Shown piece by piece: positions 6,661 through 32,741 of a stretch of DNA of 64,000 nucleotides. The stretch is from the IMG/VR virus record IMGVR_UViG_3300022902_000004, positions 126,268-190,267 of that record; one strand, 5' to 3'. The translations under genes were made by a program, and so were the position numbers. The DNA comes from a virus. Position 1 is the stretch's first letter. Each line of letters begins with the position of its first letter. The notes under the pieces were generated by a model. That model searched no databases. It was not told the DNA's origin and was given only the letters and a program-made list of their open reading frames with translations.

Positions 6661-7179
6661 CTAGAATCCCGACAACACAGCTTCCATTTTTTCTGCCATC
6701 TCGTCGTAATTGCTACTTCCGTTGGCACCCATGTTGACGACCTTTCTGCCGTTTACAATGATCCACCCGTTTCTGCCGTCAATTTTTATTTCTGCATCTG
6801 GGTATCGGCGCTTGAATTTTGCCCTCAACGATTTTGCAGCAGACATTGATGCGGGACCTGCTTGGTTATAGCTTCGTTTGCGGGGCTTTCTGCCTGTCGG
6901 TGAGTAACCATAATTCTGATCGCGACCATAATTTTGTTCATTGACCTGTTTCGAAGGTGCCAGTCGATTCGTCATGATCCCATAAACGTCTCCGTTTCCA
7001 AAATCTACGTCGGCCATGTCACCCATTTTGTGCATTTTCTTGACAGTGCCTTTCCTTGTTTTACCAAAGATCTCCGTTGTAACAATATCGCCTGGTTTTA
7101 CTACCTTTCCTACTGGTTTGGCACGCCATGGTGTGCTTTCTCGAATCAAGTTTCTAATTTGTCGTCGTGTGATTTTCAT
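6661..7179 (-). CDS. MKIT-tag family protein (basic; putative capsid-targeted internal protein)
   Basis: Starts MKITRRQIRNLIRE. 172 aa, Lys/Arg-rich. SD AAGGTGGA. Paralog of the 20.7-25.4 kb cluster. Confidence 0.6.
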   Translation of the reverse strand: MKITRRQIRNLIRESTPWRAKPVGKVVKPGDIVTTEIFGKTRKGTVKKMHKMGDMADVDFGNGDVYGIMTNRLAPSKQVNEQNYGRDQNYGYSPTGRKPRKRSYNQAGPASMSAAKSLRAKFKRRYPDAEIKIDGRNGWIIVNGRKVVNMGANGSSNYDEMAEKMEAVLSGF

Positions 7180-7182
7180 GGG

Positions 7183-7440
7183 TTACATCCACCTTTGTAC
7201 TTTTCTATTGAGTACCTTCATCGCCTGATATTTGATTCCTGGTGCTCTAAAACCGCCGCCGATACGTTCAGCCTCATCGTCGATATACCTGATCAGTGAG
7301 TCAATCTCTCTTTCAACGTTTGCCATAAGGTCGTCGCGCTCCTGGTCCTCATCATCAGAAACCGTGCCGTCCGCGTTCATCTCTGAGAGGATCTTCTCTT
7401 CATTGATAAGTCTTCGTAATTGTTTTTTTGTAATTTTCAC
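7183..7440 (-). CDS. MKIT-tag family protein (acidic; putative capsid-targeted internal protein)
   Basis: GTG start, MKITKKQLRRLINEE. SD AGGAA overlaps the sheath stop codon. 85 aa, acidic C-terminus. Confidence 0.55.
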   Translation of the reverse strand: MKITKKQLRRLINEEKILSEMNADGTVSDDEDQERDDLMANVEREIDSLIRYIDDEAERIGGGFRAPGIKYQAMKVLNRKVQRWM

Positions 7441-18064: not shown

Positions 18065-18784
18065 ATGTCACGTAGCGATCAACAATTTGAAACATTCGTC
18101 CGGTCAGTCCTCAAAGAGATCCGGGATGAAAGAAAAGGAAGTCGTGTGCTCTATCGCATTGATAAACGACCTGTCCAGGTTAGGCCTGAGCGTCGAGGTG
18201 AGGGATGGAGCAGAGACTGGTTAGCAGGTCGGGAAGACGGCGGAATCTTTATGTCGACCAATCCGCGAGGTATTCGAGCCAACCATCACATTGTTGGTCA
18301 CGTTTATGCTTATCGCGTTCCTGAGTGGGCTATCGCTAAGAGCGGTGGCTTACATCGTTTCGACTGGGGAACTGAGGTTCTTATCAAAAATGACATCTGG
18401 GAAAAAATCAAACACACCGGGGAACTCAAATTTTTGGGTAAATCAATGTCAGACGATAAACTTGACATGGATGCTTGGTATGGTGATGGTTCAGCATGGG
18501 AAAGAAGGGAAGCTGATGATTTCAGAAGAAGACAGAACAAAGATCCTGCCGTAAAATTTGAGGTAGAGTTACGGCGCATGTTGGGTTCTGCAAAGGCTGC
18601 ACACCAAGATCCGGAGCATAGCCTGCTAGGCGTCCAGATGTTATCGTTGCGTGACAGGAGGCATCGCTTTTCGATTGTCAATCAGGCGATCAAAACGGAT
18701 CACCGATTCATTATACCAACAGAGTTGCCGGCATGGAAAACATTACGGGACATACTTCGAGATTCAATCGCTGAAGATTCTTAG
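18065..18784 (+). CDS. hypothetical protein, plus-strand; possible ADP-ribosyltransferase-like motif order (YR ... STN ... E)
   Basis: Starts MSRSDQQFETF (ATG 18065). Divergent from the 17606..18013 gene. Motifs LYRID, FMSTNPRG, GTEVLI. Speculative. Confidence 0.45.
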   Translation: MSRSDQQFETFVRSVLKEIRDERKGSRVLYRIDKRPVQVRPERRGEGWSRDWLAGREDGGIFMSTNPRGIRANHHIVGHVYAYRVPEWAIAKSGGLHRFDWGTEVLIKNDIWEKIKHTGELKFLGKSMSDDKLDMDAWYGDGSAWERREADDFRRRQNKDPAVKFEVELRRMLGSAKAAHQDPEHSLLGVQMLSLRDRRHRFSIVNQAIKTDHRFIIPTELPAWKTLRDILRDSIAEDS

Positions 18785-19287
18785 ATGATCCTGTCCATTC
18801 CTTTAATTCTAATCTCCGCAGTGGCTTCAAGATCGCATTTATCGCAACCCGTCATAAACACAACAACCTTGTTTCCCACTTCATCGCTGGCATAAACAGG
18901 AATCCCGTCTAAAGTCCCGATCACTGGCCATTCTGTTTTCGCCGTGCAGCAACTGCAATGATGGTATATTCCGCGAAACCAATGCGTTGCCTCAAGGACA
19001 TTTTGAATATCACGTGAAACAATGATTCCCGATGTCATCCCTGTTATACCGTTGTCTGTTATTTTCCGCCATGCGTCGTGGACAGCCTCGGCCAAAATCG
19101 AATACCACTCTGTCACAGTTCCATAAAACAATGGGCGTGCCTCCTCGTCGGCGCAATCCTCACCTGTCTCTTTTAAGACATACCTTCCCGGCATTCGATG
19201 CCAATATGTCACGTAGTCAGGCGGTCGGCTTCCATCAAGAATTTTGCGCATAACTGCTGGGTCTGGTGTCGGATATGGTTTTATCAT
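18781..19287 (-). CDS. hypothetical protein (Cys-rich: HHCSCC, CDKCD)
   Basis: 168-aa ORF. -10-like TATAAT and SD AGAGGTAAAATAA precede the ATG. Confidence 0.5.
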   Translation of the reverse strand: MIKPYPTPDPAVMRKILDGSRPPDYVTYWHRMPGRYVLKETGEDCADEEARPLFYGTVTEWYSILAEAVHDAWRKITDNGITGMTSGIIVSRDIQNVLEATHWFRGIYHHCSCCTAKTEWPVIGTLDGIPVYASDEVGNKVVVFMTGCDKCDLEATAEIRIKGMDRII

Positions 19288-19341: not shown

Positions 19342-19731
19342 ATGAAACACAAAACAAAACATAAGATAATCACGCCGGCGGATCTTCCTGATTACGAAGA
19401 AATGGGTGAACTGTACACTGATATGAATGACTTCCTGGGCAAAACACCGATGCTGGGGACACATATCATGCAATCTGAGTTGCCGTCCTGTCTTGTTTTT
19501 TATGTTGCTGGTGATTCCGTGCAAAGTGTTGCCGTAAGCGTTTCATCGCACAAAGACGAAATGCTATCGCTTGAAGAGCTTGTTGAAAGACAGAACGATG
19601 ATGATTTTTACGTTGTGTATAAAAACAGGGTTCCTAGCGCAACGTTCAGCCCGCGTGGTGCCCCGATCGTGGATCCAAGTAAATGTTATCGATTCAAGAA
19701 AGTCCCTGTCTACAGAGACTTTAGCATTTAG
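19342..19731 (+). CDS. hypothetical protein, plus-strand
   Basis: Starts MKHKTKHKIITPADL. SD GAGGAA 9 nt upstream. TATACT -10-like element upstream. Converges on and overlaps the ParB-like gene by 11 nt. Confidence 0.35.
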   Translation: MKHKTKHKIITPADLPDYEEMGELYTDMNDFLGKTPMLGTHIMQSELPSCLVFYVAGDSVQSVAVSVSSHKDEMLSLEELVERQNDDDFYVVYKNRVPSATFSPRGAPIVDPSKCYRFKKVPVYRDFSI

Positions 19732-20692
19732 CCAATTGGCACCAACGCTCTGTCAATAGATTCCCATCACGCTCAGCAGATTCTTTCTGTGGGCTTAATG
19801 GGCTTTTGATATTGATTTCAGCGTTCTGCAGCTTGTCATAAATCGCTGCCTTTCCAGCTTTACCGCCAATTGATTTGTCGTCAAGTTGGGGCATATCCTC
19901 TCGGGCGGGCGCTTTCGTGTTGCTTGGCACAGTTGCCAGGTTTGCCGAAATCTTCTTGATGATTTTCACGATCACTTCTTTAGGATCAGCACCTGGTTTG
20001 AAGCCTGCCCATTTTGCAATGGTCTTATCTTTTGATGAGTTCGAAACCATTTCATCGTTTAGCATTGGGCCGGGGGCTCGACGGTCTACCTGGCGTCCCA
20101 CATTTGCTGCCATCATCTTTTCAATTTCGCTCGATGACTTGCCCAGAATGTTGTTTGCGATCTTTCCTGATGCTGTTGGCATATCCTGGTTTGGATCTTT
20201 GTGTGCTGCGATGGCAAGTTGAGCTGCGGCGAGTTTCTGGGTTGTGTCTCCAGGAAGCTCTAAATCTTCGGCGCTGATTACACCATCCGGTCCACTGATT
20301 GCCCATACACCTGACCATCTATGGTGCCCATCGATCACATCATCGCCTGATACGGTAATTGAGCCGGGAGCGTCTGTTGTGTTTGAGGAGATTGCTTTTG
20401 CAAGAGCCTTTGCACTTCCCAATGGAAACGCCGCCGACTTCATCATGTCAATTTCTTTCTGTGTAGGTTTGAAATCCCGAATTTGTCTCATTGCTGGTTT
20501 TGACACTTTCGTCGTGTCGTCCGCTTTGACATTGTCGTGAGTGCCATGAAGGGCAGCCTTCAACTCATCCGGGTCAGGATGGTTGTCTACGAACGATCGT
20601 ACTGCACCGGGTCCACCCTTGGCAGCCTTGGCAATATCGTCAGTCACATCCTCAAAAAGGACATCAACAAGTTTTGGATAACGATATGCCAT
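19721..20692 (-). CDS. ParB/Srx-like nuclease-domain protein (putative)
   Basis: Motif VIDGHHRW after FKPTQKEID resembles the ParB N-terminal nuclease fold core (DGHHR). Confidence 0.4.
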   Translation of the reverse strand: MAYRYPKLVDVLFEDVTDDIAKAAKGGPGAVRSFVDNHPDPDELKAALHGTHDNVKADDTTKVSKPAMRQIRDFKPTQKEIDMMKSAAFPLGSAKALAKAISSNTTDAPGSITVSGDDVIDGHHRWSGVWAISGPDGVISAEDLELPGDTTQKLAAAQLAIAAHKDPNQDMPTASGKIANNILGKSSSEIEKMMAANVGRQVDRRAPGPMLNDEMVSNSSKDKTIAKWAGFKPGADPKEVIVKIIKKISANLATVPSNTKAPAREDMPQLDDKSIGGKAGKAAIYDKLQNAEINIKSPLSPQKESAERDGNLLTERWCQLAKC

Positions 20693-21006
20693 TAGTAATG
20701 CGAGTACCGTTTTGTTTCAATTGCCCTTAGCTCCCTGGCAAGGGTAAGATAACCTAGCGTATCTGCTGGCCCCGCGACTACTTCTAGCAAGGCAAGTTCA
20801 GCGAATTCGCCACCCTCATCATCACCCAACTCATCAGCCGCATCGGCCATTACAATTTCAAGAAAATTCTCAACCTGATATTCAAGTGCAGATCGTGTTT
20901 CAATGGGGGTGTGCATGGCTAGCGCTCGTTTGCCGACGCGTCCTTCGCTCATTTTTGATTTTTCTTTACGGATTGCTTTCCGTAATTGGTTTTCTGTTAT
21001 TTTCAT
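20692..21006 (-). CDS. MKIT-tag family protein (putative internal protein)
   Basis: Family-conserved start MKITENQLRKAIRKE at 21006 (SD AGGAAAGGA). The ORF-track 5' extension is unsupported by family conservation. Confidence 0.55.
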   Translation of the reverse strand: MKITENQLRKAIRKEKSKMSEGRVGKRALAMHTPIETRSALEYQVENFLEIVMADAADELGDDEGGEFAELALLEVVAGPADTLGYLTLARELRAIETKRYSHY

Positions 21007-21080
21007 GATACCTGTGTCCTTTCCTGTACGCCCTAAACACGCCATTGGTAGGTTACCTAAGCGTAATGTAAAGAAGCTGC

Positions 21081-21320
21081 CTAGTATGCATCGTGTGATT
21101 GCTCGTATCCATCATCCCGAACTTGCTGCAGGGCGTATCTGAATTCTTCTTCTATGTCGGAATATGACAGACCGGTCGACAGTCCGCCCGTAATCAATGT
21201 TTTTAGATCTTCCGCAAAGAAGTTGCTTGTTTGAAAACGACCATCTGGACTTTTCATTTCTGCCAGTTTTGATTTTTCGTGGCGGATAACATTACGTAGC
21301 TGGTTTTCTGTAATCTTCAT
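21081..21320 (-). CDS. MKIT-tag family protein (putative internal protein)
   Basis: MKITENQLRNVIRHE. SD GGAG. Preceded by a member of the conserved promoter family (21373..21400). Confidence 0.6.
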   Translation of the reverse strand: MKITENQLRNVIRHEKSKLAEMKSPDGRFQTSNFFAEDLKTLITGGLSTGLSYSDIEEEFRYALQQVRDDGYEQSHDAY

Positions 21321-21372
21321 TCTGATGCTCCGTTACGATCATAAATATCATGTCGGGTCGCTTTATGAATAT

Positions 21373-21400
21373 ATTTTATCACACCAGCACGAAACTTACA
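21373..21400 (-). promoter_or_regulatory. sigma70-like promoter family member (TGTAAG-N16-TAAAAT)
   Basis: Coding-strand sequence CGTGTAAG TTTCGTGCTGGTGTGA TAAAAT. Overlaps the stop codon of the upstream gene. Precedes MKIT genes 21320..20692. Confidence 0.5.
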
Positions 21401-22085
21401 CGGGCCCAACTTTCTTTGCAGGAACAGTTTTTCCGCGCCACATGGTGCCGTAGGTTTTGTTGCGCCTGTTCGGTGGGATACGGTCGCCATAAGAGTTGCT
21501 TGCAGCCAGGAATGGGGTGTGAATATGCCTCACCACCGGCCCATCATAATTCTTGTATTGTGCCATCGATGCTTTATCAACAAGCACGATGTTGTTGAAC
21601 TCTTCGATGAATTGGCCAACCATGATGTCAAACCAAACAGTAAGCCCGTCCATGCGACTGAATTCTTCAGATTGAACTCGGTGCTCATAATCAGTCAGAG
21701 AGAATTTTGTCCTCAACCTTGATGTTTCTGCGCAGCCCACACCTTCTTCATATGGGGTCTCCATTGCTTTCCATTCAAAATCGACGCCGTCAAAAACTCG
21801 CCTGATAAGCGGAAACACATTTTGTTGGGCCAGGTTGAACGCTTCCTGATTCCACGTTCTTGGACACGAACGATGTCGGGAATGCATATCTTCAATTTCG
21901 CGCAGAATTAGTTTCGATTGATTCTCAAAAAGGATTGCGTAATTGAGAGCTTTTTCCTGAGACAGGTTGTCCAGGATTTGGGTGTGACTCCACTTACTGA
22001 TGAGATGCTGGTGATGCTGACTTAACACGGCGGGTGTCACAGTAACATCGTCATTGTTAGATTCATTTAGCATGTTAGCTGACAT
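21396..22085 (-). CDS. hypothetical protein
   Basis: 229-aa ORF between MKIT family clusters. Overlaps the next gene by 19 nt. Confidence 0.5.
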   Translation of the reverse strand: MSANMLNESNNDDVTVTPAVLSQHHQHLISKWSHTQILDNLSQEKALNYAILFENQSKLILREIEDMHSRHRSCPRTWNQEAFNLAQQNVFPLIRRVFDGVDFEWKAMETPYEEGVGCAETSRLRTKFSLTDYEHRVQSEEFSRMDGLTVWFDIMVGQFIEEFNNIVLVDKASMAQYKNYDGPVVRHIHTPFLAASNSYGDRIPPNRRNKTYGTMWRGKTVPAKKVGPV

Positions 22086-22492
22086 TTTATTCCTGGGTCG
22101 ACATCGTATTTCCCGATCGGGGTTTTGAGCTGCGTATGAAGATCTGCAAGCGTCTTGTTTGCAAGTGCTTCACCATATGCCGACGCGACCTCTCCTATCG
22201 GTAATGTGCCTGCTTTCGTTAGCTTTAGTCCGGGTGGTCCACCGACAGATGAGCAAACCACGCGCTCATCTTTGAATGGGTATGGCATTGGGTCGATTAC
22301 TTTTCTTGCTGGTTGCCATGGTGGGTAATCGACTTTGGGCTCCCCTTTGAGCTCCTCCATTGTCGGTGTTACCTTTGTCAAGACCAACGCTAGGTGTGCC
22401 TTTATCATTCGTACCTGTTCTGGTTTTACGTCGTCCGTATCAGAGATTTCAAAGAATCCCTGGAGCCAGTATGCAAAATCTCTTGCTGTCAT
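22067..22492 (-). CDS. hypothetical protein
   Basis: 141-aa ORF on the dominant strand. Confidence 0.45.
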   Translation of the reverse strand: MTARDFAYWLQGFFEISDTDDVKPEQVRMIKAHLALVLTKVTPTMEELKGEPKVDYPPWQPARKVIDPMPYPFKDERVVCSSVGGPPGLKLTKAGTLPIGEVASAYGEALANKTLADLHTQLKTPIGKYDVDPGIKCQLTC

Positions 22493-22504
22493 TTCGTTCT
22501 CCTG

Positions 22505-22780
22505 TTATAGTCTTGGTTCGATTTGTTCTGCTGCCAATAACTCTACGGCTGTGTCGGCAAACTCAGCGAACCAAAGAACCTGATCCCAGCATTTTCGATG
22601 TACATCAGCCCGAAAGAATGCGATTGGTTTCAAAATGCTGGGTGAATGCTCAGCAATGATGATATTTGGTGTAATGTCAATATACGCCGCGAACTTTGTT
22701 GCATTGGTTAGGGGCTGGTACGATGCTACTTTGCGTACGATGTGAAAAGGAGCCAGGGCGAATTTTGTTAGGCGGTTCAT
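22505..22780 (-). CDS. hypothetical protein
   Basis: 91-aa ORF filling what would otherwise be a 284-nt gap. ATGA-type overlap with the upstream gene. Confidence 0.3.
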   Translation of the reverse strand: MNRLTKFALAPFHIVRKVASYQPLTNATKFAAYIDITPNIIIAEHSPSILKPIAFFRADVHRKCWDQVLWFAEFADTAVELLAAEQIEPRL

Positions 22781-23466
22781 TCGTCGTCCTCGTCAATGTA
22801 CTCTATTTTGTTCATCCCGAGACGTTCCATCATGCTGTCTATAAGTTCGTCGGCACCCTCTTCGATTGGAATCGCTGGGATGTGAAATTCTTGATATAAA
22901 AGGCTGTGAAATTCTTGATGCGTTTTGCATTCGGTGTATGGTTTTAAGTCTTTTCTTTCTATAACAACGCCGGGTGCATTGAGCCTACAATATTTTGTGG
23001 CTTCGTACGCTTCATCGCTTGTCGCATAACCCGCACCTAAAATATGACCAAACTCCCAAACGGCTGCGCGCAAATCCCACTCTGGATTCATTTCCCAGCG
23101 AGGCATGTCTCGTGAAACAACGAAAAAATTGCCTGTGGATGCGGCCGCATCTTGGTACGATATTTCGCTAGCATATACTTCTGCGCGTGTCTTGGACATA
23201 TCGCATTGAGAAGGCCAGGAATGACCCACCGGCCAGTGATTATTGCCTCCGAAAGCTTTTGCGTATTGTGTGTTCCATTCTTTGACGCACTCGTCGGCAC
23301 CACCACCGTGGTCCAAAGCGCCTTGGATAAACCCTTCCAAATTCATATTGCGGATTTCTTCAGCGATTGCTTTGACATTGCTAATCACCGGGCGTAACTT
23401 CGTCGAGAACGCAATATCCGTACCTACAACGCGAAGCGTCAACAAAAACATGGGCTTACTCATCAC
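22777..23466 (-). CDS. hypothetical protein with degenerate metzincin-like motif (WEFGHILGAGY)
   Basis: GTG-ATG start. -10 TATAAT and SD GGAGG upstream. Motif aligns to HEFGHxLGxxH with first and third His replaced. Confidence 0.45.
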   Translation of the reverse strand: MMSKPMFLLTLRVVGTDIAFSTKLRPVISNVKAIAEEIRNMNLEGFIQGALDHGGGADECVKEWNTQYAKAFGGNNHWPVGHSWPSQCDMSKTRAEVYASEISYQDAAASTGNFFVVSRDMPRWEMNPEWDLRAAVWEFGHILGAGYATSDEAYEATKYCRLNAPGVVIERKDLKPYTECKTHQEFHSLLYQEFHIPAIPIEEGADELIDSMMERLGMNKIEYIDEDDE

Positions 23467-23507
23467 AACCTCCGTTTAGAGATTATATGATGAATGAGCT
23501 GGATGTA

Positions 23508-23861
23508 TTATGTTACGAAATCTAAGTGGGTGTATTTCCTGGGTGCACGCTTATTTAGCATCCCCTTACCTGCGTTTGCTGCCATGAACTGAACGAATTC
23601 TTCTTTCGTTCCCGGGCTGTCATTGTGGCTAAAATCGATGTTCATTAAGCTTTCATCAGCGTAATCTTCTGATGGGAAACGGGCCGGCGGGGAAACCCTT
23701 ACATATGACTTGTATGGTTTGTAGCCCATCGTCTTCAAATCTTCCGGTGTCAGCGTTTCCATCCAGAGTTCACCAGACATAAACCTGAGCCAGGCCTCCG
23801 TTTTGTTTCCACCTAAGGATTCCCGAATGAGATGCCTGAGTTTGGATTCTGTGATTTTCAT
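23508..23861 (-). CDS. MKIT-tag family protein (putative internal protein)
   Basis: Family start MKITESKLRHLIRE at 23861. ATGA overlap with the upstream member. SD AGGA. Confidence 0.55.
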   Translation of the reverse strand: MKITESKLRHLIRESLGGNKTEAWLRFMSGELWMETLTPEDLKTMGYKPYKSYVRVSPPARFPSEDYADESLMNIDFSHNDSPGTKEEFVQFMAANAGKGMLNKRAPRKYTHLDFVT

Positions 23862-24100
23862 TCGTAATCCTGGTACACCGTGTTTTGGCTTTGTTGGCCG
23901 TCTCTTCGTCTGCCGGCCACAGATCGACGAACTGCTTGAATACATTTATCAACAATCGTCGCGGCCTGATAGTGTCCTGCTTCTTCTAGTTTCCATATTG
24001 CACTGCCGAGACTTTGTATCGCCTCACTAACTAGTCGAGCTTTTTCGTTTGAGGAGGTTTCTTTTACCAGCTTCCTGAGTTGAGATTCTGTGATTTTCAT
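23858..24100 (-). CDS. MKIT-tag family protein (putative internal protein)
   Basis: MKITESQLRKLVKE. SD AAGGTAGG. Translationally coupled (ATGA overlaps). Confidence 0.6.
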   Translation of the reverse strand: MKITESQLRKLVKETSSNEKARLVSEAIQSLGSAIWKLEEAGHYQAATIVDKCIQAVRRSVAGRRRDGQQSQNTVYQDYE

Positions 24101-24576
24101 TGATGCCTACCTTTGTATTTTCTTGTCGCTACAACCGGTTCTGCAAATGTAAGGACTGTCTCATACGTCGTTCTATTCCCAGAAAAGCGAGCCAATGACC
24201 AAGAATTGCCGGAGGAATCCGTCCATGTATGTTTCGATTTAGTCCAGTTTCCGGCGGGATGATGGTCATCCGAAGCACCTGAGTGTTTGAAACCTAACGC
24301 CTCCATCGCTTCCACCAGTTGCCAGTCAAAGAAATTCCGCAGTGTCTTCGACCATGAAACACGGGTCGCCATTCCAGGAACAGTGTCATCAACATCAGTC
24401 GATCGTCCGTTTCCTCCAGGGATTCCCGCTTTGATCGCAGCGAGCTGTTTTTCCGTTACTTCCAAACGCGTACGACTATTAAAACTGTCAGAAACAGTGA
24501 TGTACCTCTTTCGCGATGATTGCTCAGATAGCAGCTTCTTCACGACAATTTTTAGTTGTGATTCGGTGATTTTCAT
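24097..24576 (-). CDS. MKIT-tag family protein (putative internal protein, 159 aa)
   Basis: MKITESQLKIVVKKLLSE. SD AGGAAGG. Confidence 0.6.
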   Translation of the reverse strand: MKITESQLKIVVKKLLSEQSSRKRYITVSDSFNSRTRLEVTEKQLAAIKAGIPGGNGRSTDVDDTVPGMATRVSWSKTLRNFFDWQLVEAMEALGFKHSGASDDHHPAGNWTKSKHTWTDSSGNSWSLARFSGNRTTYETVLTFAEPVVATRKYKGRHQ

Positions 24577-24815
24577 TGTGACCTTCCTATCAGGGTCAGG
24601 GCAATCGCCCGAATGACAGGCAGCTTCCCAACTTGTTCACCGTGTGTCGCGAGCTCTTTCGCAATTGCTTGACAAAACTCTTTCTTTCCCAACAGGCTTT
24701 CGATGGCTTTTTGTTCGTCTGGGCCTAACTGATTGAATAGCTGTTCTGCCCGATCGGTTTTGCCTTCAGCTTGCTCTCGGATTAGTTTCCTGAGCTGTGT
24801 TTCTGTGATTTTCAT
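24573..24815 (-). CDS. MKIT-tag family protein (putative internal protein)
   Basis: MKITETQLRKLIRE. SD GGTGGAGAA. Confidence 0.6.
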   Translation of the reverse strand: MKITETQLRKLIREQAEGKTDRAEQLFNQLGPDEQKAIESLLGKKEFCQAIAKELATHGEQVGKLPVIRAIALTLIGRSQ

Positions 24816-25027
24816 TGGTTCTCCACCGCGGTGTCGATCGCACTACGAACAGCATCGGCTCCGATTTCATGACCGATGGAAGCCAGAATAACCTCGGCGC
24901 GCTTTAGGAACTCCAGTGCCCTGTCCATCTCATGATCCCAAGTGAAATCTGATGTTTCATTTTGGCCCCAGTCTGAGACGTGCGATTCTTTTATCAGTTT
25001 TCTGAGTTCTGATTCTGTGATTTTCAT
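24812..25027 (-). CDS. MKIT-tag family protein (putative internal protein)
   Basis: MKITESELRKLIKE. First gene after promoter 25083..25110. Confidence 0.6.
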   Translation of the reverse strand: MKITESELRKLIKESHVSDWGQNETSDFTWDHEMDRALEFLKRAEVILASIGHEIGADAVRSAIDTAVENQ

Positions 25028-25082
25028 TTGTGCCTCGTATATGTATCACTAAATATCTAATTGCACCCGAAATTACATAAAT

Positions 25083-25110
25083 ATTATACCACACATACAC
25101 GAATATTACA
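25083..25110 (-). promoter_or_regulatory. sigma70-like promoter (TGTAAT-N16-TATAAT with TGG extended -10), member of conserved family
   Basis: Coding-strand sequence ATGTAAT ATTCGTGTATGTGTGG TATAAT. Drives the coupled MKIT gene operon 25027..23508. Confidence 0.55.
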
Positions 25111-25112
25111 TG

Positions 25113-25149
25113 CCAAAGACGAAGGGCTCCCAGATTTCTCCAGGAGCCC
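25113..25149 (-). terminator. hairpin terminator after first MKIT-family gene
   Basis: Minus-strand RNA reads GAAGGGCUCC-loop12-GGAGCCCUUC followed by GUCUUUGG. Confidence 0.5.
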
Positions 25150-25180
25150 TTCAAACGTTTAGCTAACCGAAGCTAGCCAG

Positions 25181-25432
25181 TCACACAGACATTGGGTCAT
25201 CAAGATCGAGACCCTCAGCATTGTAGTCCATCCAGTACAAATCAGAATCGTCGGCCTCAGACTGAATGTAGTTCATTATCTCATCCTTGCTATGACCTGT
25301 TTCATGTTCCGCTTCGGCCCATGGGATTATGCCTGGTGATGGCGCGAGATTGTGGAGCGTTATCCAGAGATCACGACGCGAATGTTTTTGCTCTCTGATG
25401 AGTTTCCTGAGATTTGATTTTGTGATTTTCAT
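25181..25432 (-). CDS. MKIT-tag family protein (putative internal protein)
   Basis: MKITKSNLRKLIRE. Followed by a hairpin terminator. Confidence 0.6.
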   Translation of the reverse strand: MKITKSNLRKLIREQKHSRRDLWITLHNLAPSPGIIPWAEAEHETGHSKDEIMNYIQSEADDSDLYWMDYNAEGLDLDDPMSV

Positions 25433-25464: not shown

Positions 25465-26460
25465 TTAGAATCGAATCACACAAAATTCCTTATCGTTCTG
25501 AAAGCTCCAATCGATTGCCGCTTGATATTTCAATGGGTCGTTGTCATTTTCCTGACCTTTGACTTCGTAAAGCATTGAACCTGAGAGTGATAGGAAGTCT
25601 GGGACATAGGTTCGCTCGACGCCGTTTGGGTCTTTGTATGGGATGCGGATGTCGTGTTTCTTGGTGACTGGCTCGCCCCGAGATACACATTCGTCCAGGA
25701 AACGGGACTCCCACCCGGAGTGCATGTATTCTTCTTGCTGTGTGAACGGGTTGAACTTCCACTCGGTCTTGAATGGCGCCTGCGGCCCGATGACGCCGTC
25801 CTCTAGCAACTGGATGGCACGTTCGCTGTATACTTTTTTCATTTCTGGATTGTTTTGCCACCAACGTTTTGATGCAACTGATTTCTTCTTCTTTACATCC
25901 TGCCTTGCGGCGGTTTTATGGCCGGCAAGTCTTTGCTTCTCACGGTACTCGTCAGTTCTTAGCACCTCAACCCTTTTATCATAATCCTCGTCCCACCTTT
26001 TTTGAGCCGCCTTACTGTAACGCTCTTTTTGCTCAGATGTTCTTACCTTTCCAAAGTTTGGACTGTCGGCTCCTCGTTTTCCATACATTCCATTATTTTT
26101 GCCTTTGTTACTGTGTCCACGAAGATATTCAGGAAACCCGCCCTTCGCCCATTTGAGTTTCGTATTGCAGCCGCACTTGCATACCGGCCAGATGTTGTTA
26201 TGTTCTGTACGAACTTGATATGCCGGCCATTCAATTTTATGCTCTTTTCTTACGTGACGAGCAAGAACATTGTTTGAATTTGCAACAAGCTCGTCGCAAA
26301 TCTTACACTTTATTGTGAACTCGACGACAGGTTTTGCATAAATCTCTTTTGCGATATCCTTATGCCAATAACCAACATGAGCACCGACGGATCTCGGCGT
26401 ATTTCTCAACATCTTGTCGCAGTACTTGCACTTTACTTTTTCTATTTGTTTTTCCATCAT
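25465..26460 (-). CDS. freestanding homing endonuclease-like protein (NUMOD3-like repeats + C-terminal PD-(D/E)xK nuclease motif)
   Basis: Probable start MMEKQIEKVKCKYC at 26460. NUMOD3-like MYGKRGADSPNFGKVRTSEQKERYSK. C-terminal YVPDF...YEVKG is PD-(D/E)xK-like. Inserted between MCP gene and MKIT cluster. Confidence 0.55.
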   Translation of the reverse strand: MMEKQIEKVKCKYCDKMLRNTPRSVGAHVGYWHKDIAKEIYAKPVVEFTIKCKICDELVANSNNVLARHVRKEHKIEWPAYQVRTEHNNIWPVCKCGCNTKLKWAKGGFPEYLRGHSNKGKNNGMYGKRGADSPNFGKVRTSEQKERYSKAAQKRWDEDYDKRVEVLRTDEYREKQRLAGHKTAARQDVKKKKSVASKRWWQNNPEMKKVYSERAIQLLEDGVIGPQAPFKTEWKFNPFTQQEEYMHSGWESRFLDECVSRGEPVTKKHDIRIPYKDPNGVERTYVPDFLSLSGSMLYEVKGQENDNDPLKYQAAIDWSFQNDKEFCVIRF

Positions 26461-26508
26461 ACAATAAATATATAGGAAATGAATGAATTGTATAGGAAAA
26501 AGATGGTT

Positions 26509-26546
26509 AAAAAGGAAAAGGCGCCCTTTGTGGGGGCGCCTTTCCA
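26509..26546 (-). terminator. intrinsic terminator downstream of major capsid gene (GC hairpin GGCGCCC/GGGCGCC + U-tract), palindromic and potentially bidirectional
   Basis: Minus-strand RNA reads GGCGCCCCCACAAAGGGCGCC UUUUCCUUUUU. Preceded by a second AU-rich 8-bp hairpin (26549..26568). Confidence 0.7.
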
Positions 26547-26574
26547 ATCATCTAGTGGTAACTAGATGGTCAAC

Positions 26575-28473
26575 CTAGATAACGTTCATGTCAAGACATG
26601 TCACAGTTCCGTAGAAATCGTTACGGACCATTTTCTTACCGTACCGAGTCATCACGCCCTTTCGAGGAGTGAAGTCTTCCGGTGCGAAGATGGTAGGAGT
26701 CACGATCAGCGGGACGTAAGGAGCGTAGACGTATCCTGTCTCCAGGTAGCTTCCGCCCTTGTATCCAACCAGAATCTGGTTGCGTGGGAAGTAAGGGTCC
26801 TTGTAAACCGAGAATCGATTCGACAGGGTACCAACCTTCTCAGCACCGATAACCATCGGGCCAACCTGTCCGTCAGCGTCAAGCGAGAAGCTTGGCTTGT
26901 ACAGGATTGAAGACTCGAAGATTGTTGCAACATCCGGGCCGACAACGATGAAGTTAGCCGAACCACGTAGCGTCTTACGATGAATCTCGTTAGCAACGTC
27001 GATGATGGTCTCGATAAGAGTCTCGTACCACTCTCGAACTGTACCGGTGAATGCCGGGCCAGGTGTCAACGAGTTTGTACGGTTGACTTCGATACCAGTC
27101 TGCTTGTTGAGGAACTTACCTGGGCTACGTGACCAGTAGAAGCGCGCAGCTCCAGCCTGTGTCAGCAAGTCATTCAAGATCTCTCGGTCAAGCTCCATTG
27201 CGATCTGCTCGGACAGGATGTGTGTCAGCTCAACCTCAGCGTCAAGGCTGTGGTAAGCGTTCAGGTCCTGTGCCATTTCTGGCGACCAGCGGGCACGCAA
27301 CTTACGAGTCTCAGCCACAACAGCGATTGACTCGATCTTGATGTCGATTTCTGGGATTGCAGGTGATGGGTCGACCGCGAAGTCAGACTCGAACGAAGGA
27401 ATGACCAACGTATCACCAGTGTTTGCAGCCGAATCGAGTGCAGCAGCCAATGGCTTAGCAAGCACGGTTGCAGGAGCAGCGAGGCCGCCCTGGTTAGCAC
27501 CAGACACAATCATCAAGAGCGCTGCGTTAGCATCGCCTGCCTTGACCAAGCCGTTAGGCGTGAAGTTTGTGCCGTCCCAGGTTCCCATCTGGTTCAATCG
27601 ACGGATGTTAGCTGTGCTACCACCCTGGATTGCGTTACCATTGGTGTCGTTTCCAACAACCTTGTATGGGGCCACTGGAGCCAACGAGAAGTCCTTAGAC
27701 AACGTAAGGTCAGCATCACCGAAGAGCGTACCACCTGAAGCCAACGAAACCACGAGTGCGTGATATACAGCAGAACCTGTAAGAGCACCCGGTCCGCCAC
27801 CAACTGGTGCCGCGTTGTTCTCGATTGCGTTTGTGATTTGCGGGTCGTACTGAAGCAACTTGCCGTCAGAACCTGTTGCAGCCAATGTTTTAGCATTGCT
27901 GAACACTGTTCCGGAACCGAAAGCACCTGATGCCGACAATGAAACTGCAGCAGTCACACCGTAAACTCGAGAGTAACCCGAGCCAGCAAGGTCGTACTGA
28001 CCACCAACGCCCTGCGAACCAGACTGAACGCCTTTACCCGCTGGGCTGTTGTAAATTGACGAACCTGAAGAATAAGGTGTCGCCGCGCCGACCGAACCTG
28101 CCATGTTTCCACCGTAGGTGTAGTCCATGTAGAAGAGCAGTCCGGAAGGAAGGCTCATTGGCTGGATCGAAACAAGGTCGTTCGCAATCAATCCACCGAA
28201 GACTCGGCGAACCAATGGGAATGCGATGTTTGTGAAACCACGAAGGTCACCAGACGAGGTTCCGTTAGCGCCACCGGTCGAAATCGATGATGCTTCCTTG
28301 ATAACCTGGCCAGCCTGACTTTCGAGCAAGCGCGCCATGTTCTCTCGTTTCGTGCCGTCAAGGCCGCGAAGAAGACCAGTACGGTTCCACTTCTCGATGA
28401 GTAGTTTGTTTTGCGAGCCGACGTGACGTTTTTGAATCCCCTCGGTTAGCATTTCTAGATTAAATGTAGACAT
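26575..28473 (-). CDS. major capsid protein (T4 gp23-like)
   Basis: 632 aa. IAFPLVRRVFGGLIANDLVSIQPMSLPSGLLF aligns with gp23 MVRRAIPNLIAFDICGVQPMNSPTGQVF. C-terminus YFPRNQILVGYKGG...GYVYAPYVPL...TRYG aligns with gp23 DYFTVGYKGP...GIYYAPYVAL...TRYG. Putative LLE|S processing site near residue 51. SD AAGGAG. Confidence 0.9.
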   Translation of the reverse strand: MSTFNLEMLTEGIQKRHVGSQNKLLIEKWNRTGLLRGLDGTKRENMARLLESQAGQVIKEASSISTGGANGTSSGDLRGFTNIAFPLVRRVFGGLIANDLVSIQPMSLPSGLLFYMDYTYGGNMAGSVGAATPYSSGSSIYNSPAGKGVQSGSQGVGGQYDLAGSGYSRVYGVTAAVSLSASGAFGSGTVFSNAKTLAATGSDGKLLQYDPQITNAIENNAAPVGGGPGALTGSAVYHALVVSLASGGTLFGDADLTLSKDFSLAPVAPYKVVGNDTNGNAIQGGSTANIRRLNQMGTWDGTNFTPNGLVKAGDANAALLMIVSGANQGGLAAPATVLAKPLAAALDSAANTGDTLVIPSFESDFAVDPSPAIPEIDIKIESIAVVAETRKLRARWSPEMAQDLNAYHSLDAEVELTHILSEQIAMELDREILNDLLTQAGAARFYWSRSPGKFLNKQTGIEVNRTNSLTPGPAFTGTVREWYETLIETIIDVANEIHRKTLRGSANFIVVGPDVATIFESSILYKPSFSLDADGQVGPMVIGAEKVGTLSNRFSVYKDPYFPRNQILVGYKGGSYLETGYVYAPYVPLIVTPTIFAPEDFTPRKGVMTRYGKKMVRNDFYGTVTCLDMNVI

Positions 28474-28516: not shown

Positions 28517-28534
28517 CGGCAAAATTATTTGCCG
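28517..28534 (-). promoter_or_regulatory. 7-bp stem / 4-nt loop hairpin (CGGCAAA-UAAU-UUUGCCG) whose loop contains the scaffold gene stop codon, 40 nt upstream of MCP start
   Basis: Perfect palindrome seen in sequence. Function unknown (possible RNA processing or stability element). Confidence 0.35.
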
Positions 28535-30267
28535 GGAAGACCTGCTAGGACTGCCCATCGACCTGCATCAACGCCACTTTTGGCAGGTTGTCCTGACCGG
28601 GTTGATCTGGAAGACGACCCGAGAGTCCTTTTTCCTTCACTCAGCATGTTGCCACCTTGGCCCCTACGAGTGAGTGACTCGGAGAGTGATTTGTAAAGCA
28701 GTTTTGCCTCACGGAGCGTCTTGGCATTATCGATCGCCTCAACAATTGCTCGCTGTTGTTTTACGGTTAGACCCTTGTTCTGGAGCAACTTGTTAGCAAA
28801 CAAGAGCTTCGCGTTGAACATGTTCATTTCAACCAGTTGTTTCTTCAACTTGGTTGCCGCTGTTTTGTATGTCTTTGCTTCTTTCATAGCACGTGAGTGG
28901 CCTCGCGATGGGCGAGCTGGACGTCGCCCTCGACCTTCAGCAACTCGACGACGACCAGCTCGTCGTCGACGACTTTCAGCAACACTACCAAGCTCATCCG
29001 CTAGGACGTTGATCAGTGTGTCTTCATCGATTTCAATCACGTCACCGAGAATCTTGCCATCACCAAACTGGTCGGCCTCATCTTCAGCGGCTTCGCGAAC
29101 CATTCGGCGTAGTTTTGAACGACCACGTGACTCTCGGATCTTGCGACCATTACCATTTCTCATGCGTGAAAGCTCCTTACGAAGAACCGACTCATCGATT
29201 TCGTATACTTCATCCAAGTCGTCAGACTCTTTCAGTCCGCTCCATGCAGACTCCTCAAGGTCAACGTCCAATTCTTCGACATCGTCGAACCCTTCTTCGC
29301 CACCTTCCTCATAGTCCATTTCGTCACCACCTTCGCCAGCAATCTCAAGGTCAAGACCAAGAGCAGAGCCTAGACTCTGTAGCGCAGCAGTTGCAGCGTC
29401 GACGTCAACATCGCCTGTTGGGACGCCTTCTTCTTCGACATCCAAATCAAGCTCTTCGCCCGAATCCTCGAGCCCACCATCAAGAACCTCAACGTCCTCT
29501 CCAGTTTCTTCCTGCTCGTTCACGGCGTCGTCCGCATCTTTCTTCTTCGATTCAGCGGCATCGCCCTCGAAAAGAAAGTCGAAAATGTTCTTTTTGTATT
29601 TACTTGACATTTCTCTCATCTCCTTAATGGTAGAATTCAGCTTTGCATGAAGGCGCCGATGACCCGTTCCACTCAATTTTACTTCATTCTGCAAGGACAC
29701 AGCGTCCTTAACACATGACATAAAACCCAGTTCTAATCGTTTTCTTTTAACGGTTGATAGTTTGCTCTCTCGGAGCACGCTCACCACATCGCCGAGTTTC
29801 TTAACTCGCTTCGATAGGGCGTCGATTTTTTCTTCAAGACGGCGTGGGGCGACGAAGTCCTTATTAATAAGGGAAGCAAGAACGTTTGCGCCGGCTTCAC
29901 CTAGCATCATTTCGTCGTGTGACTCTGATACGTTAATGTTTACGTCGCCTGCGGCGTGAACTGAAACAGAACCTGCCTGCGTGACTGCCTCTTGCGACGC
30001 AGCATCTTCGAAATCAACTCCGACATCTGGCATTCCGTCGAGCATGGATTCTAGATCGTAATCGTCTTCCATTCCGCCCATCGCGCCGTCGCCGTCTTCA
30101 TCAGAATCATCATCATCAACTTCGTCTTGTTCGAACAAGATTCTGTTGTTGATCATTTCCCTGATTTGCGGAGTTATCGTTTCCATAATTCGAGCCTGTG
30201 CAGCCTGTTCGGCTGCGTCTCGAATCTTTCGCGCGTCTAGCAATGCTTCGTCATATACTGTTGACAT
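28525..30267 (-). CDS. prohead scaffold protein (gp22-like, putative)
   Basis: 580 aa, strongly acidic (poly-D/E tracts), predicted helical/coiled coil. Immediately upstream of the MCP gene. Confidence 0.5.
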   Translation of the reverse strand: MSTVYDEALLDARKIRDAAEQAAQARIMETITPQIREMINNRILFEQDEVDDDDSDEDGDGAMGGMEDDYDLESMLDGMPDVGVDFEDAASQEAVTQAGSVSVHAAGDVNINVSESHDEMMLGEAGANVLASLINKDFVAPRRLEEKIDALSKRVKKLGDVVSVLRESKLSTVKRKRLELGFMSCVKDAVSLQNEVKLSGTGHRRLHAKLNSTIKEMREMSSKYKKNIFDFLFEGDAAESKKKDADDAVNEQEETGEDVEVLDGGLEDSGEELDLDVEEEGVPTGDVDVDAATAALQSLGSALGLDLEIAGEGGDEMDYEEGGEEGFDDVEELDVDLEESAWSGLKESDDLDEVYEIDESVLRKELSRMRNGNGRKIRESRGRSKLRRMVREAAEDEADQFGDGKILGDVIEIDEDTLINVLADELGSVAESRRRRAGRRRVAEGRGRRPARPSRGHSRAMKEAKTYKTAATKLKKQLVEMNMFNAKLLFANKLLQNKGLTVKQQRAIVEAIDNAKTLREAKLLYKSLSESLTRRGQGGNMLSEGKRTLGSSSRSTRSGQPAKSGVDAGRWAVLAGLPGK

Positions 30268-31445: not shown

Positions 31446-31724
31446 TTAGATTCGGCGACCAATTCGACGACGCAACTTTGATTTCTGCTCGCGCAATCGC
31501 TTGAGACCGCGAACCATCTTTGCTTCCTTGATCTTCAGTGCCTTGATAAAGTCAAGATCCTGCTCAAGCGTACCGGCCAGTGCGTCAGCATCAACTTCGT
31601 CAGCATTGACATCTTCTGCTTCCTTCTTGCCCTGCTCGATCGTTTCTAGTTTTAGTTTCCTAGCCTCTTGAATGATAATCTTCTTCAGGAAGCCAGGTGT
31701 AATTCGTCGTACTCTCTTTGCCAT
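31446..31724 (-). CDS. small charged prohead-core-like protein (gp67/gp68-like, putative)
   Basis: 92 aa, highly charged. N-terminal IIQE / KLE motifs resemble gp21 cleavage sites. SD AAGGAG. Confidence 0.4.
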   Translation of the reverse strand: MAKRVRRITPGFLKKIIIQEARKLKLETIEQGKKEAEDVNADEVDADALAGTLEQDLDFIKALKIKEAKMVRGLKRLREQKSKLRRRIGRRI

Positions 31725-31764: not shown

Positions 31765-32337
31765 TTATGGAAGTTTTTTAGTCGTCGAACGCTCTAAAAC
31801 TTCGCTCCAATTCGCCGCGGCATCACCAAACAACGCATTGATGTCAAGACCGGCGGCAGCCTGGTGTTGAACAGGAGGTTGAGGCCGCCTTGTATACGCT
31901 GCCTCCGGCATGTTTTCCTGGACCATGCCATATGCATCTCGAGGGCCCGGCAAAGATGGTGCTGACATCCGAGGGACCGACGGCACATTTGTTTCGTGTT
32001 TCATTCGTTCGCGGTACGTTGTATTCGCCGTCTCATTCAAAATACTTTGAAGCATCACATCATCGGTTGCCATCGTTGCCAAGTTTGATGTGGTATCATT
32101 TCCACCAAAACGTTGCTGGAAAGACTCGTCCATTTGATCAAAAATGGATGTTCTTTTCTGCTGACGTTTTGGTTGACGCCGCTGTTGGCGTTGTGGGCGT
32201 CGCAATTCTTGCACAGGTTCTCGGCGACGTGAGCCCTCAGTTAGACTTTGCTGCGGAACGCCGAGCCCCTCACTTAGAAGTTCAACGAGGCATTCCTTGA
32301 TGAGACCCTTCAACGACGCCTTTGTCATTTTTGCCAT
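31765..32337 (-). CDS. prohead-core-like protein (putative)
   Basis: N-terminus MAKMTKASLKGLIKECLVELLSEGL has multiple (L/I)xE motifs. Gln/Arg-rich. Confidence 0.4.
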   Translation of the reverse strand: MAKMTKASLKGLIKECLVELLSEGLGVPQQSLTEGSRRREPVQELRRPQRQQRRQPKRQQKRTSIFDQMDESFQQRFGGNDTTSNLATMATDDVMLQSILNETANTTYRERMKHETNVPSVPRMSAPSLPGPRDAYGMVQENMPEAAYTRRPQPPVQHQAAAGLDINALFGDAAANWSEVLERSTTKKLP

Positions 32338-32741
32338 TATCCTACTCCTACGACACCGTTTGAACCTGACATTGTAAAGAAGTTCTTGCGGGGTATTGTT
32401 GTTAAACCGGCGACAATTGACACAATGTTTGGGTCTGTTCCGGCGTCTTTTCTTACGAAGACTTCATCGCACTTTAATTCAAGACGTGGTGTGTTACTCA
32501 TCGCCAAGACCAAAAAATAGTTTGATTCAGTTGGGTTTGCATTGACACCGTTTTCAGTAAACCCAACACGAACGGGTGTTGAACCCGAATTGAAAATCGT
32601 GACGTGCCTTGCCACGTATGGAAACGTGAACTTTTGTGGAGCTGTGTCCACCATAGATGCTGATGAGCTGACAAACGGTACTCCGGCTGCCTGATATTCG
32701 CTGACCATTCCGTGGCCAGGCGGTGCATATTGTTGACTCAT
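32337..32741 (-). CDS. hypothetical head-module protein
   Basis: 134 aa. ATGA overlap with the next gene. Confidence 0.45.
   Translation of the reverse strand: MSQQYAPPGHGMVSEYQAAGVPFVSSSASMVDTAPQKFTFPYVARHVTIFNSGSTPVRVGFTENGVNANPTESNYFLVLAMSNTPRLELKCDEVFVRKDAGTDPNIVSIVAGLTTIPRKNFFTMSGSNGVVGVG

Follow-up and report, generated by a model that had tools for sequence, protein, structure and literature searches.

A short N-terminal tag common to ten otherwise unrelated phage proteins: a candidate capsid-targeting sequence in a shuffling gene array

The tagged genes and their setting

The 64,000-nucleotide stretch analysed here (positions 126,268 to 190,267 of the IMG/VR virus record IMGVR_UViG_3300022902_000004; hereafter the window) carries ten open reading frames (ORFs), all on the minus strand, that open with nearly the same peptide, MKIT-x3-[LI]-[RK]-x-[LVA]-[IV]-x-E, which we call the tag; the remainder of each protein we call its cargo. 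Eight of them lie in one main locus and two at a second site between tail sheath and tail tube. The original prediction, made from the sequence of the window, that ten such genes exist was borne out: on a profile of the ten tags the members reach 32-42 bits, and the next-best start codon in the six frames of the 64 kb reaches 5.5 bits. The genes are listed below, a slash marking the predicted point of cleavage.

25181..25432, minus strand: tagged gene, 83 aa, MKITKSNLRKLIRE/Q; acidic cargo; missing from the sister genome L205
24812..25027, minus strand: tagged gene, 71 aa, MKITESELRKLIKE/S; heads a five-gene operon coupled by ATGA overlaps
24573..24815, minus strand: tagged gene, 80 aa, MKITETQLRKLIRE/Q
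24097..24576, minus strand: tagged gene, 159 aa, basic; extended tag MKITESQLKIVVKKLLSE/Q, with the site at E18 (LLSE)
23858..24100, minus strand: tagged gene, 80 aa, MKITESQLRKLVKE/T; V at P3 (LVKE)
23508..23861, minus strand: tagged gene, 117 aa, MKITESKLRHLIRE/S; closes the coupled operon
21081..21320, minus strand: tagged gene, 79 aa, MKITENQLRNVIRHE; tag end without canonical (L/I)xE; ATATTTA motif 21 nt upstream
20692..21006, minus strand: tagged gene, 104 aa, MKITENQLRKAIRKE; without canonical site; longest ORF to 21045
7183..7440, minus strand: tagged gene, 85 aa, GTG start, (M)KITKKQLRRLINE/E; second site
6661..7179, minus strand: tagged gene, 172 aa, basic, isoelectric point (pI) 10.3, MKITRRQIRNLIRE/S; second site

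A Shine-Dalgarno sequence stands 6-12 nt upstream of each member; in the case of the 117-aa gene, whose longest ORF reaches 23945, the tag methionine has one of its own. Four 4-nt ATGA overlaps link five genes, from 25027 down to 23508, just as had been described. To call the tag invariant was too strong, since M1, K2, I3 and T4 are its sole invariant residues, with L8 and R9 conserved at 90% or more and MKITESQLRKLIRE as the window consensus. The eight genes of the main locus are likewise present but do not form the single tandem run that had been claimed: six tagged genes are followed by four untagged ones (21396-23466) and then by two tagged.

Beyond the tag the ten sequences do not align with one another, and scans of the ten members against Pfam and PHROG gave no significant match, which upholds the earlier description of the remainders as unrelated and unrecognizable. 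Recent tandem duplication was considered as the origin of the array and rejected, because similarity ends at the tag and the cargos are unrelated. Full-length searches found two homologs of the 159-aa member among 5.8 billion proteins and five of the 172-aa member, some of them shorter and made up of the tag and the last domain only, a sign of domain modularity; 40-aa tag-bearing inputs to a word-indexed protein search returned two proteins only. A profile made exclusively from the tags of other phages gave the members 14.7-39.2 bits over 18,577 window-protein positions, the 85-aa gene being the top scorer on this independent, lineage-wide profile at 39 bits; the best non-member reached 19.0 bits and the following one -1.0.

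The genes around the array belong to a T4-type virion module, whose main members are these.

36157-37755: terminase, in the T4-type virion module
34173-36104: portal, PF07230 Portal_T4
32742-33347, minus strand: prohead protease, PF03420 Peptidase_S77; phrog_207 at 2.8e-50; aligns to the T4 gp21 structure 5JBL
31765..32337, minus strand: conserved head-module protein, 190 aa, N-terminus MAKMTKASLKGLIKE/CLVE/LLSE/G
31446..31724, minus strand: small head-module protein, 92 aa, tag-like N-terminus ...RITPGFLKKIIIQE/A
28525-30267, minus strand: scaffold-like protein, 580 aa, acidic, in the gp22 position; 28 [LIV]xE sites
26575-28473, minus strand: major capsid protein (MCP), PF07068 Gp23 family

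The module further holds a series of small head genes, the neck genes, a pair of sheath paralogs, a tube gene and a baseplate hub gene. The sheath paralogs (7450-10533 and 10560-13727, minus strand; about 1,030-1,055 aa) stand in tandem and have a common N-terminus, MAE(F/Q)TF..., and this two-sheath arrangement is kept across the lineage. Almost all genes of the window are on the minus strand, and its G+C content is 45.9%. Two contigs, one of 184.5 kb from ENA and one of 136 kb from a JGI metagenome, carry the window sequence at 100% identity, and homologs of its members are also present in ENA, JGI, Logan and Tara assemblies; two of the collected loci (L083 and L084) are 100% identical to the window and so carry no information on microdiversity.

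Among cultured phages the MCP is closest to those of Flavobacterium phage immuto (48% identity), Microcystis phage Mel-JY01 (44%) and Rhodothermus phage RM378 (39%), with cyanophages below these at 33-35%. These MCP matches suggest that the window derives from a Far-T4-type uncultured marine T4-like myovirus of about 185 kb (for the Far-T4 context see Roux et al. 2015, PMC4360716). The protein P0159 (HOE73_00465), a partial NCBI entry from a metagenome-assembled genome (MAG), is 100% identical to the 159-aa tagged member and was deposited under 'Bacteroidetes Order II incertae sedis'. The label may point to the host or be a binning artefact and is only a hint; it is consistent with the proposal of Bacteroidetes as hosts of marine Far-T4 viruses (PMC7198788). 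Mel-JY01 has a block of tandem repeats of roughly 130-400 nt within a very large ORF (37000-38800 of the stretch collected), which showed up in a de novo screen as repeated pseudo-N-termini and is unrelated to the tag.

Tag end, head proteins and a candidate promoter

Among 262 unique tags from 200 loci, selected only on positions 2-4, 8 and 9, the unselected positions are conserved as follows: I11 in 77%, I12 in 93%, K or R at 13 in 85% and E14 in 94%, then E15 in 69% and a hydrophobic residue 16 in 77%, conservation fading past residue 16. The lineage consensus is MKITK(R/S)QL(R/K)xII(K/R)EE(L/I). Since T4 gp21 cuts after L/I-X-E (PMC9026906), the I12-x-E14 of the tag family is a site of the gp21 type; in the window the canonical (L/I)-x-E falls at residue 14 in six tags out of ten and at residue 18 (LLSE) in a seventh. 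The position is also that of a T4 capsid-targeting sequence (CTS), a propeptide of 10-19 residues (PMC9026906, PMC5694885) used by every T4 internal head protein (PMC5694885). By its family, PHROG and structural matches the protease at 32742-33347 is a true T4 gp21-family enzyme, as had been proposed, and we presume that it is the enzyme that removes the tag.

The MCP carries a predicted maturation site, QVIKE60/A61, which ends, as the tag does, in [IV]-[KR]-E. Because residue 12 of mature T4 gp23* aligns to T66 of the window protein, the homologous cut would fall at about residues 55-61, and VIKE60/A61 indeed lies within six residues of the position homologous to T4 gp23 cleavage; the MCPs of relatives keep VLKE/A, VLRE/A or VLKE/Q in this region. 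Tag-like sequence is also found at the start of other head proteins. The best non-member match to the tag profile, at 19 bits, is the 190-aa head protein encoded two genes downstream of the protease (a 134-aa gene, 32337-32741, lies between them), and about 25 of its orthologs in relatives retain the tag-like start, two of them (L063 and L064) as exactly MKITKTQLKNLVKE. The next-best profile positions are residue 380 of the scaffold, the N-terminus of the 92-aa head protein, the MCP cleavage region and the N-terminus of a 280-aa head protein. Pfam scans of the neighbouring head proteins and of the untagged genes of the locus found nothing.

Structure prediction of the cargos, proposed earlier as a check, succeeded for one of two members. 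In the AlphaFold2 model of the 172-aa protein the tag is helical at 5-14 and leads through a disordered linker (13-24) to a Tudor/SH3-like barrel (32-69), beyond which another linker connects to an alpha/beta domain (109-170); Foldseek found generic Tudor/SH3-like barrels only (E >= 1.8e-3) and no match to the C-terminal domain. That of the 159-aa protein, with a predicted local distance difference test score of 43, is unusable overall, and places a helix at 5-17 at low confidence. In the wider family several cargos have recognizable domains, namely a TseH-like hydrolase (55 bits, cutoff 27), pentapeptide repeats, LysM, AAA_33 and FliG_C, and a fused ORF (P0016) has a stretch that resembles a NUDIX motif.

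A heptamer, ATAYTTA, precedes tagged genes and virion genes alike. It occurs 22 times in the window against 9.45 expected, a number reached in 0 of 100 shuffles. Nineteen of these copies lie on the coding strand, for the most part 5-58 nt ahead of a start codon, and they precede MCP, scaffold, sheath, tube, hub and neck genes as well as two tagged operons. The copies in front of the latter are these.

25050..25084, minus strand: two ATATTTA motifs (25050 and 25078), upstream of the five-gene tagged operon
21342, minus strand: ATAYTTA, preceding the 79-aa member

Other sites on the minus strand include 28494, 30285, 13768, 6647, 4307, 16945, 17555, 18027 and 31756. We consider ATAYTTA a candidate late promoter. 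The T4 late promoter TATAAATA is not enriched in the window (2 copies against 0.95 expected), and neither sigma-70-like promoters nor terminators are enriched in the locus.

Turnover of the cassettes and distribution of the tag

The ten tagged genes have no homolog in 80 loci centred on related MCPs, in which the flanking virion genes match in 16-80, and the interval from MCP to neck, 9.3 kb in the window, is about 1 kb in the closest MCP relatives, L004 and L005 (77-78% identical). Finer comparison is possible with two sister genomes, L205, whose MCP is 93% identical, and L208, whose sheath is 97% identical. L205 lacks the 83-aa gene and has an extra untagged gene of 202 aa and an extra tagged one of 160 aa; the cargo of the 117-aa gene is swapped for an unrelated one; the 71-aa gene has its ortholog (73% identity by BLASTP; 0.78 over the global alignment used for dN/dS, the ratio of nonsynonymous to synonymous rates) at another array position; and the gene order 158-80-67 is the reverse of 71-80-159 in the window. 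The second site holds four tagged genes in L208 and two in the window. Gain, loss, replacement and permutation thus all occur between sister genomes, as expected of the hypervariable locus first described.

In blastn alignments of the window with L205 the blocks of homology begin and end inside the tag, over some 25-45 nt; at one place the upstream intergenic region and the first 23 nt of the tag are conserved and are then followed by different cargos in the two genomes. The alignments show the 42-48 nt of tag DNA acting as a portable homology block for cassette exchange. The tagged genes are real genes under purifying selection: their dN/dS against orthologs in L205 and L208 is 0.06-0.18, that of the MCP being 0.10. 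Several of these orthologs have dS values of 1.6-2.9, or saturated, compared with about 0.5 in the backbone, and because they so far exceed it we take the tagged alleles to have been imported by recombination rather than to have evolved in place.

Other genes of the region are these.

25465-26547, minus strand: homing-endonuclease-like gene between MCP and tagged array; phrog_15427 (endonuclease) and phrog_655 (homing endonuclease)
21396-23466, minus strand: four untagged genes in the locus, three without homolog in the 80 MCP-related loci
21396-22085, minus strand: 229-aa MCP-propeptide paralog, aligning to MCP residues 18-95; LILRE/I in place of VIKE/A
19721..20692, minus strand: 323-aa gene with DGHHRW motif, at the end of the locus; untagged in the window
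5245-6048, minus strand: second homing-endonuclease-like/zinc-finger gene, near the other tagged site; weak zinc-finger PHROG match only

Contrary to the original prediction, the locus does not lie directly downstream of the MCP gene, for the first of these genes and a terminator hairpin intervene. The terminator-like hairpin (26515-26545, minus strand; 12 pairs, 8 of them G-C, then a T run) is directly past the MCP stop codon and overlaps the TTG at which the next ORF starts in the mechanical call; the real start of that ORF is probably the methionine of MEKQ... near 26457. Both homing-endonuclease-like genes are conserved at 87-88% in the sister genomes. Orthologs of the 323-aa gene start with MKITERRLRKH in L205 (12784-13779) and with MKLDHSTIRRLVLEE in L020 (3933-4976), so that a tag can evidently be gained or lost on a conserved protein; the DGHHRW motif, for which Pfam gave no match, we take to be ParB/Srx-like. 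A 168-aa gene at 18781-19287 (minus strand) aligns to MCP residues 446-526; with dN/dS of about 0.08-0.09 against the sister genome, it and the 229-aa paralog appear to be functional MCP-derived genes rather than decaying ones. Two of the collected loci, L028 and L059, have two full-length MCP paralogs in tandem.

The tag extends well beyond the sister genomes. A degenerate pattern of its DNA was found in at least 120 IMG/VR stretches and in 27 stretches of GTDB genomes, nearly all of the latter MAG contigs resembling mis-binned phages. About 200 loci yielded 277 unique tagged ORFs with a median length of 110 aa (range 22-356 aa), and 73 of the 120 IMG/VR tag loci among the matches listed carry homologs of non-tag window genes. 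The MCPs beside tagged arrays are only 43-60% identical to that of the window, which indicates that the tag is old within this branch. The position and size of the arrays vary.

L156: nine tagged genes, between tube and hub
L132: tagged array between tube and hub
L164: five tagged genes after the MCP
L099, L108, L142: two to four tagged genes beside the protease
L121, L155: three to four tagged genes upstream of the terminase region
L226: 14 tagged genes in 8 kb; with L217 on PBIO01000025.1 (101 kb), labelled a Halobacteriovorax MAG
L233: 17 consecutive tagged genes within 8 kb; its 306-kb contig has at least 28

The last two arrays are the largest seen. L233 belongs, with L227, L216 and L236, to contig NHDW01000006.1, labelled as Methylococcaceae MAG TMED69; this contig and PBIO01000025.1 are probably phage genomes mis-binned into bacterial MAGs.

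Searching 1.84 billion protein representatives with the tag profile gave 459 matches at E <= 1e-3, and 117 of the top 150 hold two or three tags; multi-tag ORFs dominate because a single tag scores too low for significance, and among ORFs of the IMG/VR loci such fusions are rare (3 of 190). The internal copy begins with M (77%) or, less often, V (7%), and residues such as E-G-K precede it. The fusions look like adjacent cistrons joined in frame. We considered and rejected [LIV]xE-(G/S)-K before the internal tags as an extra protease site, the simpler reading being a translated Shine-Dalgarno sequence and spacer of a formerly separate gene. The multi-tag ORFs (P0003-P0152; 10337-11053 of L090; the 3082-3729 region of L140; 365-955 of L163) could be real fusions or polyproteins, or frameshift artefacts. 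Searching the literature for the tag string turned up no paper printing it, and the Far-T4 papers (PMC4360716, PMC7198788) mention neither internal proteins nor the tag.

Capsid delivery, its alternatives and known systems

On balance we think it probable, from the motifs and by analogy with T4, that the tag is a capsid-targeting sequence cut by the prohead protease, the cargo being freed in the head and injected. The window has a 14-residue N-terminal peptide common to ten proteins with unrelated remainders, ending for the most part in (L/I)-x-E; a gp21-family S77 protease together with a gp22/gp23-type scaffold-and-shell pathway; and a hyperplastic location whose content varies between close relatives. 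The idea as originally put, of an N-terminal propeptide, a prohead-protease site and variable cargos, agrees, as far as sequence comparison goes, with the tests of motif, protease, MCP site and plasticity.

The steps may be pictured as follows. The tagged genes are co-oriented with the virion genes and two of their operons appear to share the ATAYTTA element with structural genes; because this motif also stands before MCP, scaffold, sheath and tube, the tagged proteins would probably be made during prohead assembly. The short, basic, helical tag would dock the cargo on the acidic scaffolding core, as the N-termini of conserved core proteins may also do, with the scaffold-like protein of 28525-30267 as its presumed partner. 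To judge by the motif and by homology with T4, the S77 protease would then cut after E14 of I/L-x-E and free the cargo inside the head, where, if it behaves like T4 IPI*, IPII, IPIII and Alt, it would stay with the DNA and enter the host, some cargos acting early. Anti-defence, cell-wall hydrolysis and DNA mimicry are, by analogy, candidate roles. Meanwhile the tag DNA, serving as homology block, keeps the repertoire fluid as cassettes are gained, lost, replaced and reordered. More tentatively, and with the balance of doubt tipped the other way, we suggest that the whole may constitute a modular capsid-delivery system of a large, uncultured and mostly marine branch of T4-like phages, in which a 16-residue address loads dozens of swappable injected proteins per genome and the same 45-nt block is the site of their recombination.

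Several observations weigh against capsid targeting followed by injection. Two of the ten tags (ending AIRKE and VIRHE) lack the canonical (L/I)xE and a third has V at P3 (LVKE), so that the ending claimed for the tag held in seven. The helical amphipathicity of the tag is marginal (p ~0.05-0.07), and ATAYTTA has the standing of a candidate. In the wider family 146 of 273 cargos are acidic, with pI below 5, which is awkward for proteins injected from beside packed DNA; T4 IPII and IPIII are basic and DNA-associated. Since most are acidic, many cargos may be core accessories and not injected effectors. The relative depletion of internal cleavage sites in cargos is in keeping with processing, yet the signal is modest: the observed/expected ratio of [LI]xE is 1.09 in cargos, and in the controls, untagged ORFs from the same loci, it is 1.29 and 1.22, these being greedy ORF calls that may include spurious ORFs and site-rich scaffold proteins. 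The ratio for [LI]xD moves in the opposite direction (1.22 against 1.11 and 1.05), Asp at P1 being known to block T4 processing (PMC9026906). Among the 120 tag loci listed, 47 have no window-gene homolog in the stretch covered, and given these loci a restriction of the tag to phages with an S77 protease is not proven. In cultured phages, consensus tags and a double-tag protein had no tblastn match among 50,697 records, probably a limit of sensitivity with a 15-residue motif, and the tag profile found none in the complete RM378 genome or in the 41 kb scanned from each of immuto and Mel-JY01. Lastly, no sequence similarity could be detected between the tag and the T4 CTS: the relationship is one of functional analogy, not of demonstrable homology. 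The T4 peptide, MKTYQEFIAE, by eye shares with the tag only the initial MK and the hydrophobic-x-E ending.

The strongest alternative keeps the address and changes the fate of what is addressed: the tag would route proteins to the prohead core, most cargos being assembly accessories (core fillers, or factors of size or stability like T4 gp67 and gp68) that are degraded or expelled before DNA packaging. Precedent exists in T4 gp22, gp67 and gp68, which are cleaved to fragments that leave the head (PMC9026906); most cargos are small and acidic, like scaffold and core proteins, the best non-member matches to the tag are themselves core and scaffold proteins, and some arrays adjoin the protease gene, the position of T4 genes 67 and 68. 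Essential assembly factors should, however, be conserved, and the tagged genes turn over even at 93% MCP identity; the cargos are relatively poor in [LI]xE and not rich in it like the scaffold with its 28 sites; and some cargos bear domains of enzymes or effectors (TseH-like, LysM, pentapeptide repeats). We therefore consider this explanation unlikely, if the best of the remainder.

Somewhat less likely again is that the tag has nothing to do with the capsid and is an interaction helix, for a cytoplasmic partner (chaperone, hub protein or polymerase) or for hetero-oligomerisation, the I-x-E being coincidental. The tie between tag and capsid is, after all, indirect, the tag is a short helix with hydrophobic residues at 3, 8, 11, 12 and 16, and the 47 listed loci just mentioned show no structural gene in the stretch covered. 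Coincidence would nevertheless have to account for an exact gp21 site kept at I12 and E14 in more than nine tags out of ten, for the same ending at the predicted MCP cleavage site and for tag-like N-termini on proteins of the head module; it would leave aside the embedding of arrays in structural modules with a candidate promoter motif in common, and a disordered linker behind the tag that fits a removable propeptide.

That conservation is mainly at the nucleic-acid level, as a recombination site of about 45 nt or an element of translation initiation or regulation, with a functionless peptide, has in our view a slim chance of being correct. Rearrangement breakpoints between sister genomes do lie inside the tag DNA, codons following the start are A-rich, and codon pairs for the same residue are identical with a frequency of 0.50 against 0.35 expected from codon usage; a mild nucleotide-level component in tag conservation exists. 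Identity within the window tags is, however, 0.73 at first and second codon positions and 0.47 at third positions, with Arg and Leu kept by way of many different codons, so that an explanation purely at the level of DNA or RNA does not suffice. The pattern is moreover kept across lineages with MCPs 43-60% identical and different G+C contents, and a tag-like peptide heads conserved single-copy head genes that are no cassettes.

A secretion or membrane-insertion signal, or a leader of the type found on ribosomally synthesized and post-translationally modified peptides (RiPPs), which conserved N-termini and hypervariable C-termini in tandem arrays superficially recall, can practically be dismissed: the tag is charged (net +1 to +4) and its longest hydrophobic run, of 2-3 residues, makes neither a transmembrane segment nor the h-region of at least 7 residues on which we rejected a Sec/Tat signal peptide or membrane anchor, so contradicting the alternative that the original prediction had named as refuting, and a RiPP leader was rejected on cargos too large for short core peptides (22-356 aa, median 110), some of them folded, multi-domain or enzymatic, and on neighbours that are virion genes, with no adjacent modifying enzymes.

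Taken as a capsid-targeting sequence, the tag has its closest counterpart in the CTS and internal proteins (IPs) of T4 (Mullaney & Black 1996; reviewed in PMC3012670, PMC9026906), where the conserved CTS alone is described as enough to encapsidate diverse defence proteins. IPI, IPII, IPIII and Alt likewise are unrelated proteins with a common short N-terminal propeptide and a hydrophobic-x-Glu site for a gp21-family protease, encoded in plastic regions that differ between close relatives. The window tag is longer, with 14-16 conserved residues compared with the 10 sufficient in T4, and its arrays stand inside late modules of a Far-T4-like, uncultured, marine lineage, with cargos that are mostly acidic. 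The ten members in 64 kb were first described as an unusually large arsenal, which is so beside the three IPs and Alt of T4 and not so within the lineage, where relatives have 14-17 in tandem and at least 28 per contig; the window illustrates well what reaches a larger scale elsewhere. In tag sequence and length, scale, cargo charge and host lineage the system would thus differ from that of T4, while its logic otherwise appears to be the same.

Other systems resemble it in part. T4 gp67, gp68 and gp22 are core-associated, encoded beside the protease gene and cleaved at L/I-x-E, and the 190-aa and 92-aa head proteins of the window have tag-like N-termini with several such sites; homology is not detectable (no Pfam or PHROG match), and the tagged genes, in contrast to these, are dispensable cassettes and not conserved core. 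The inner-body and ejection proteins of phiKZ, 201phi2-1 and SPN3US are also head-internal proteins cut after Glu at a short motif, by an S80 protease, SPN3US gp53 and gp54 have conserved paralogous N-termini, and the propeptides of the group are proposed to be CTS-like (PMC5694885); these propeptides differ in having 80-130 residues and S/A-x-E sites, on large, mostly conserved proteins that form no tandem cassettes. In the shuffling by promoter(early)-stem-loop (PeSL) elements in hyperplastic regions of T4-type phages (Arbiol et al. 2010, PMC2839356), short repeats flank ORFans and mediate their insertion, deletion, replacement and reordering; there the repeat is an intergenic promoter and stem-loop in early regions, whereas in the window it is coding, the first 45 nt or so of genes in late structural modules. 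Cargo-loading peptides of encapsulins and delivery domains of polymorphic toxins and type VI secretion systems (T6SS) offer an analogy only, of one conserved address for many payloads, with unrelated machinery and sequences. Encapsulin signals are usually C-terminal. The TseH-like tagged cargo recalls T6SS effectors, though we claim no membership.

Proteins injected from the phage head act before phage genes are expressed, as does the anti-restriction factor IPI* of T4, and outside a few model phages they are, to our knowledge, not recognisable from sequence. If the tag is a capsid-targeting signal, it labels injected proteins directly in metagenomes, and would provide a large, testable catalogue of early-effector candidates from widespread aquatic phages, for which no close cultured tag carrier was found. 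One short sequence would be both protein address and homology block for the shuffling of cassettes, a concrete case of the two functions in one. Should the more tentative modular-delivery reading also hold, the tag would mark an 'injectome' of thousands of unannotated early effectors, candidate anti-defence proteins included, and would itself be a packaging signal usable in engineering.

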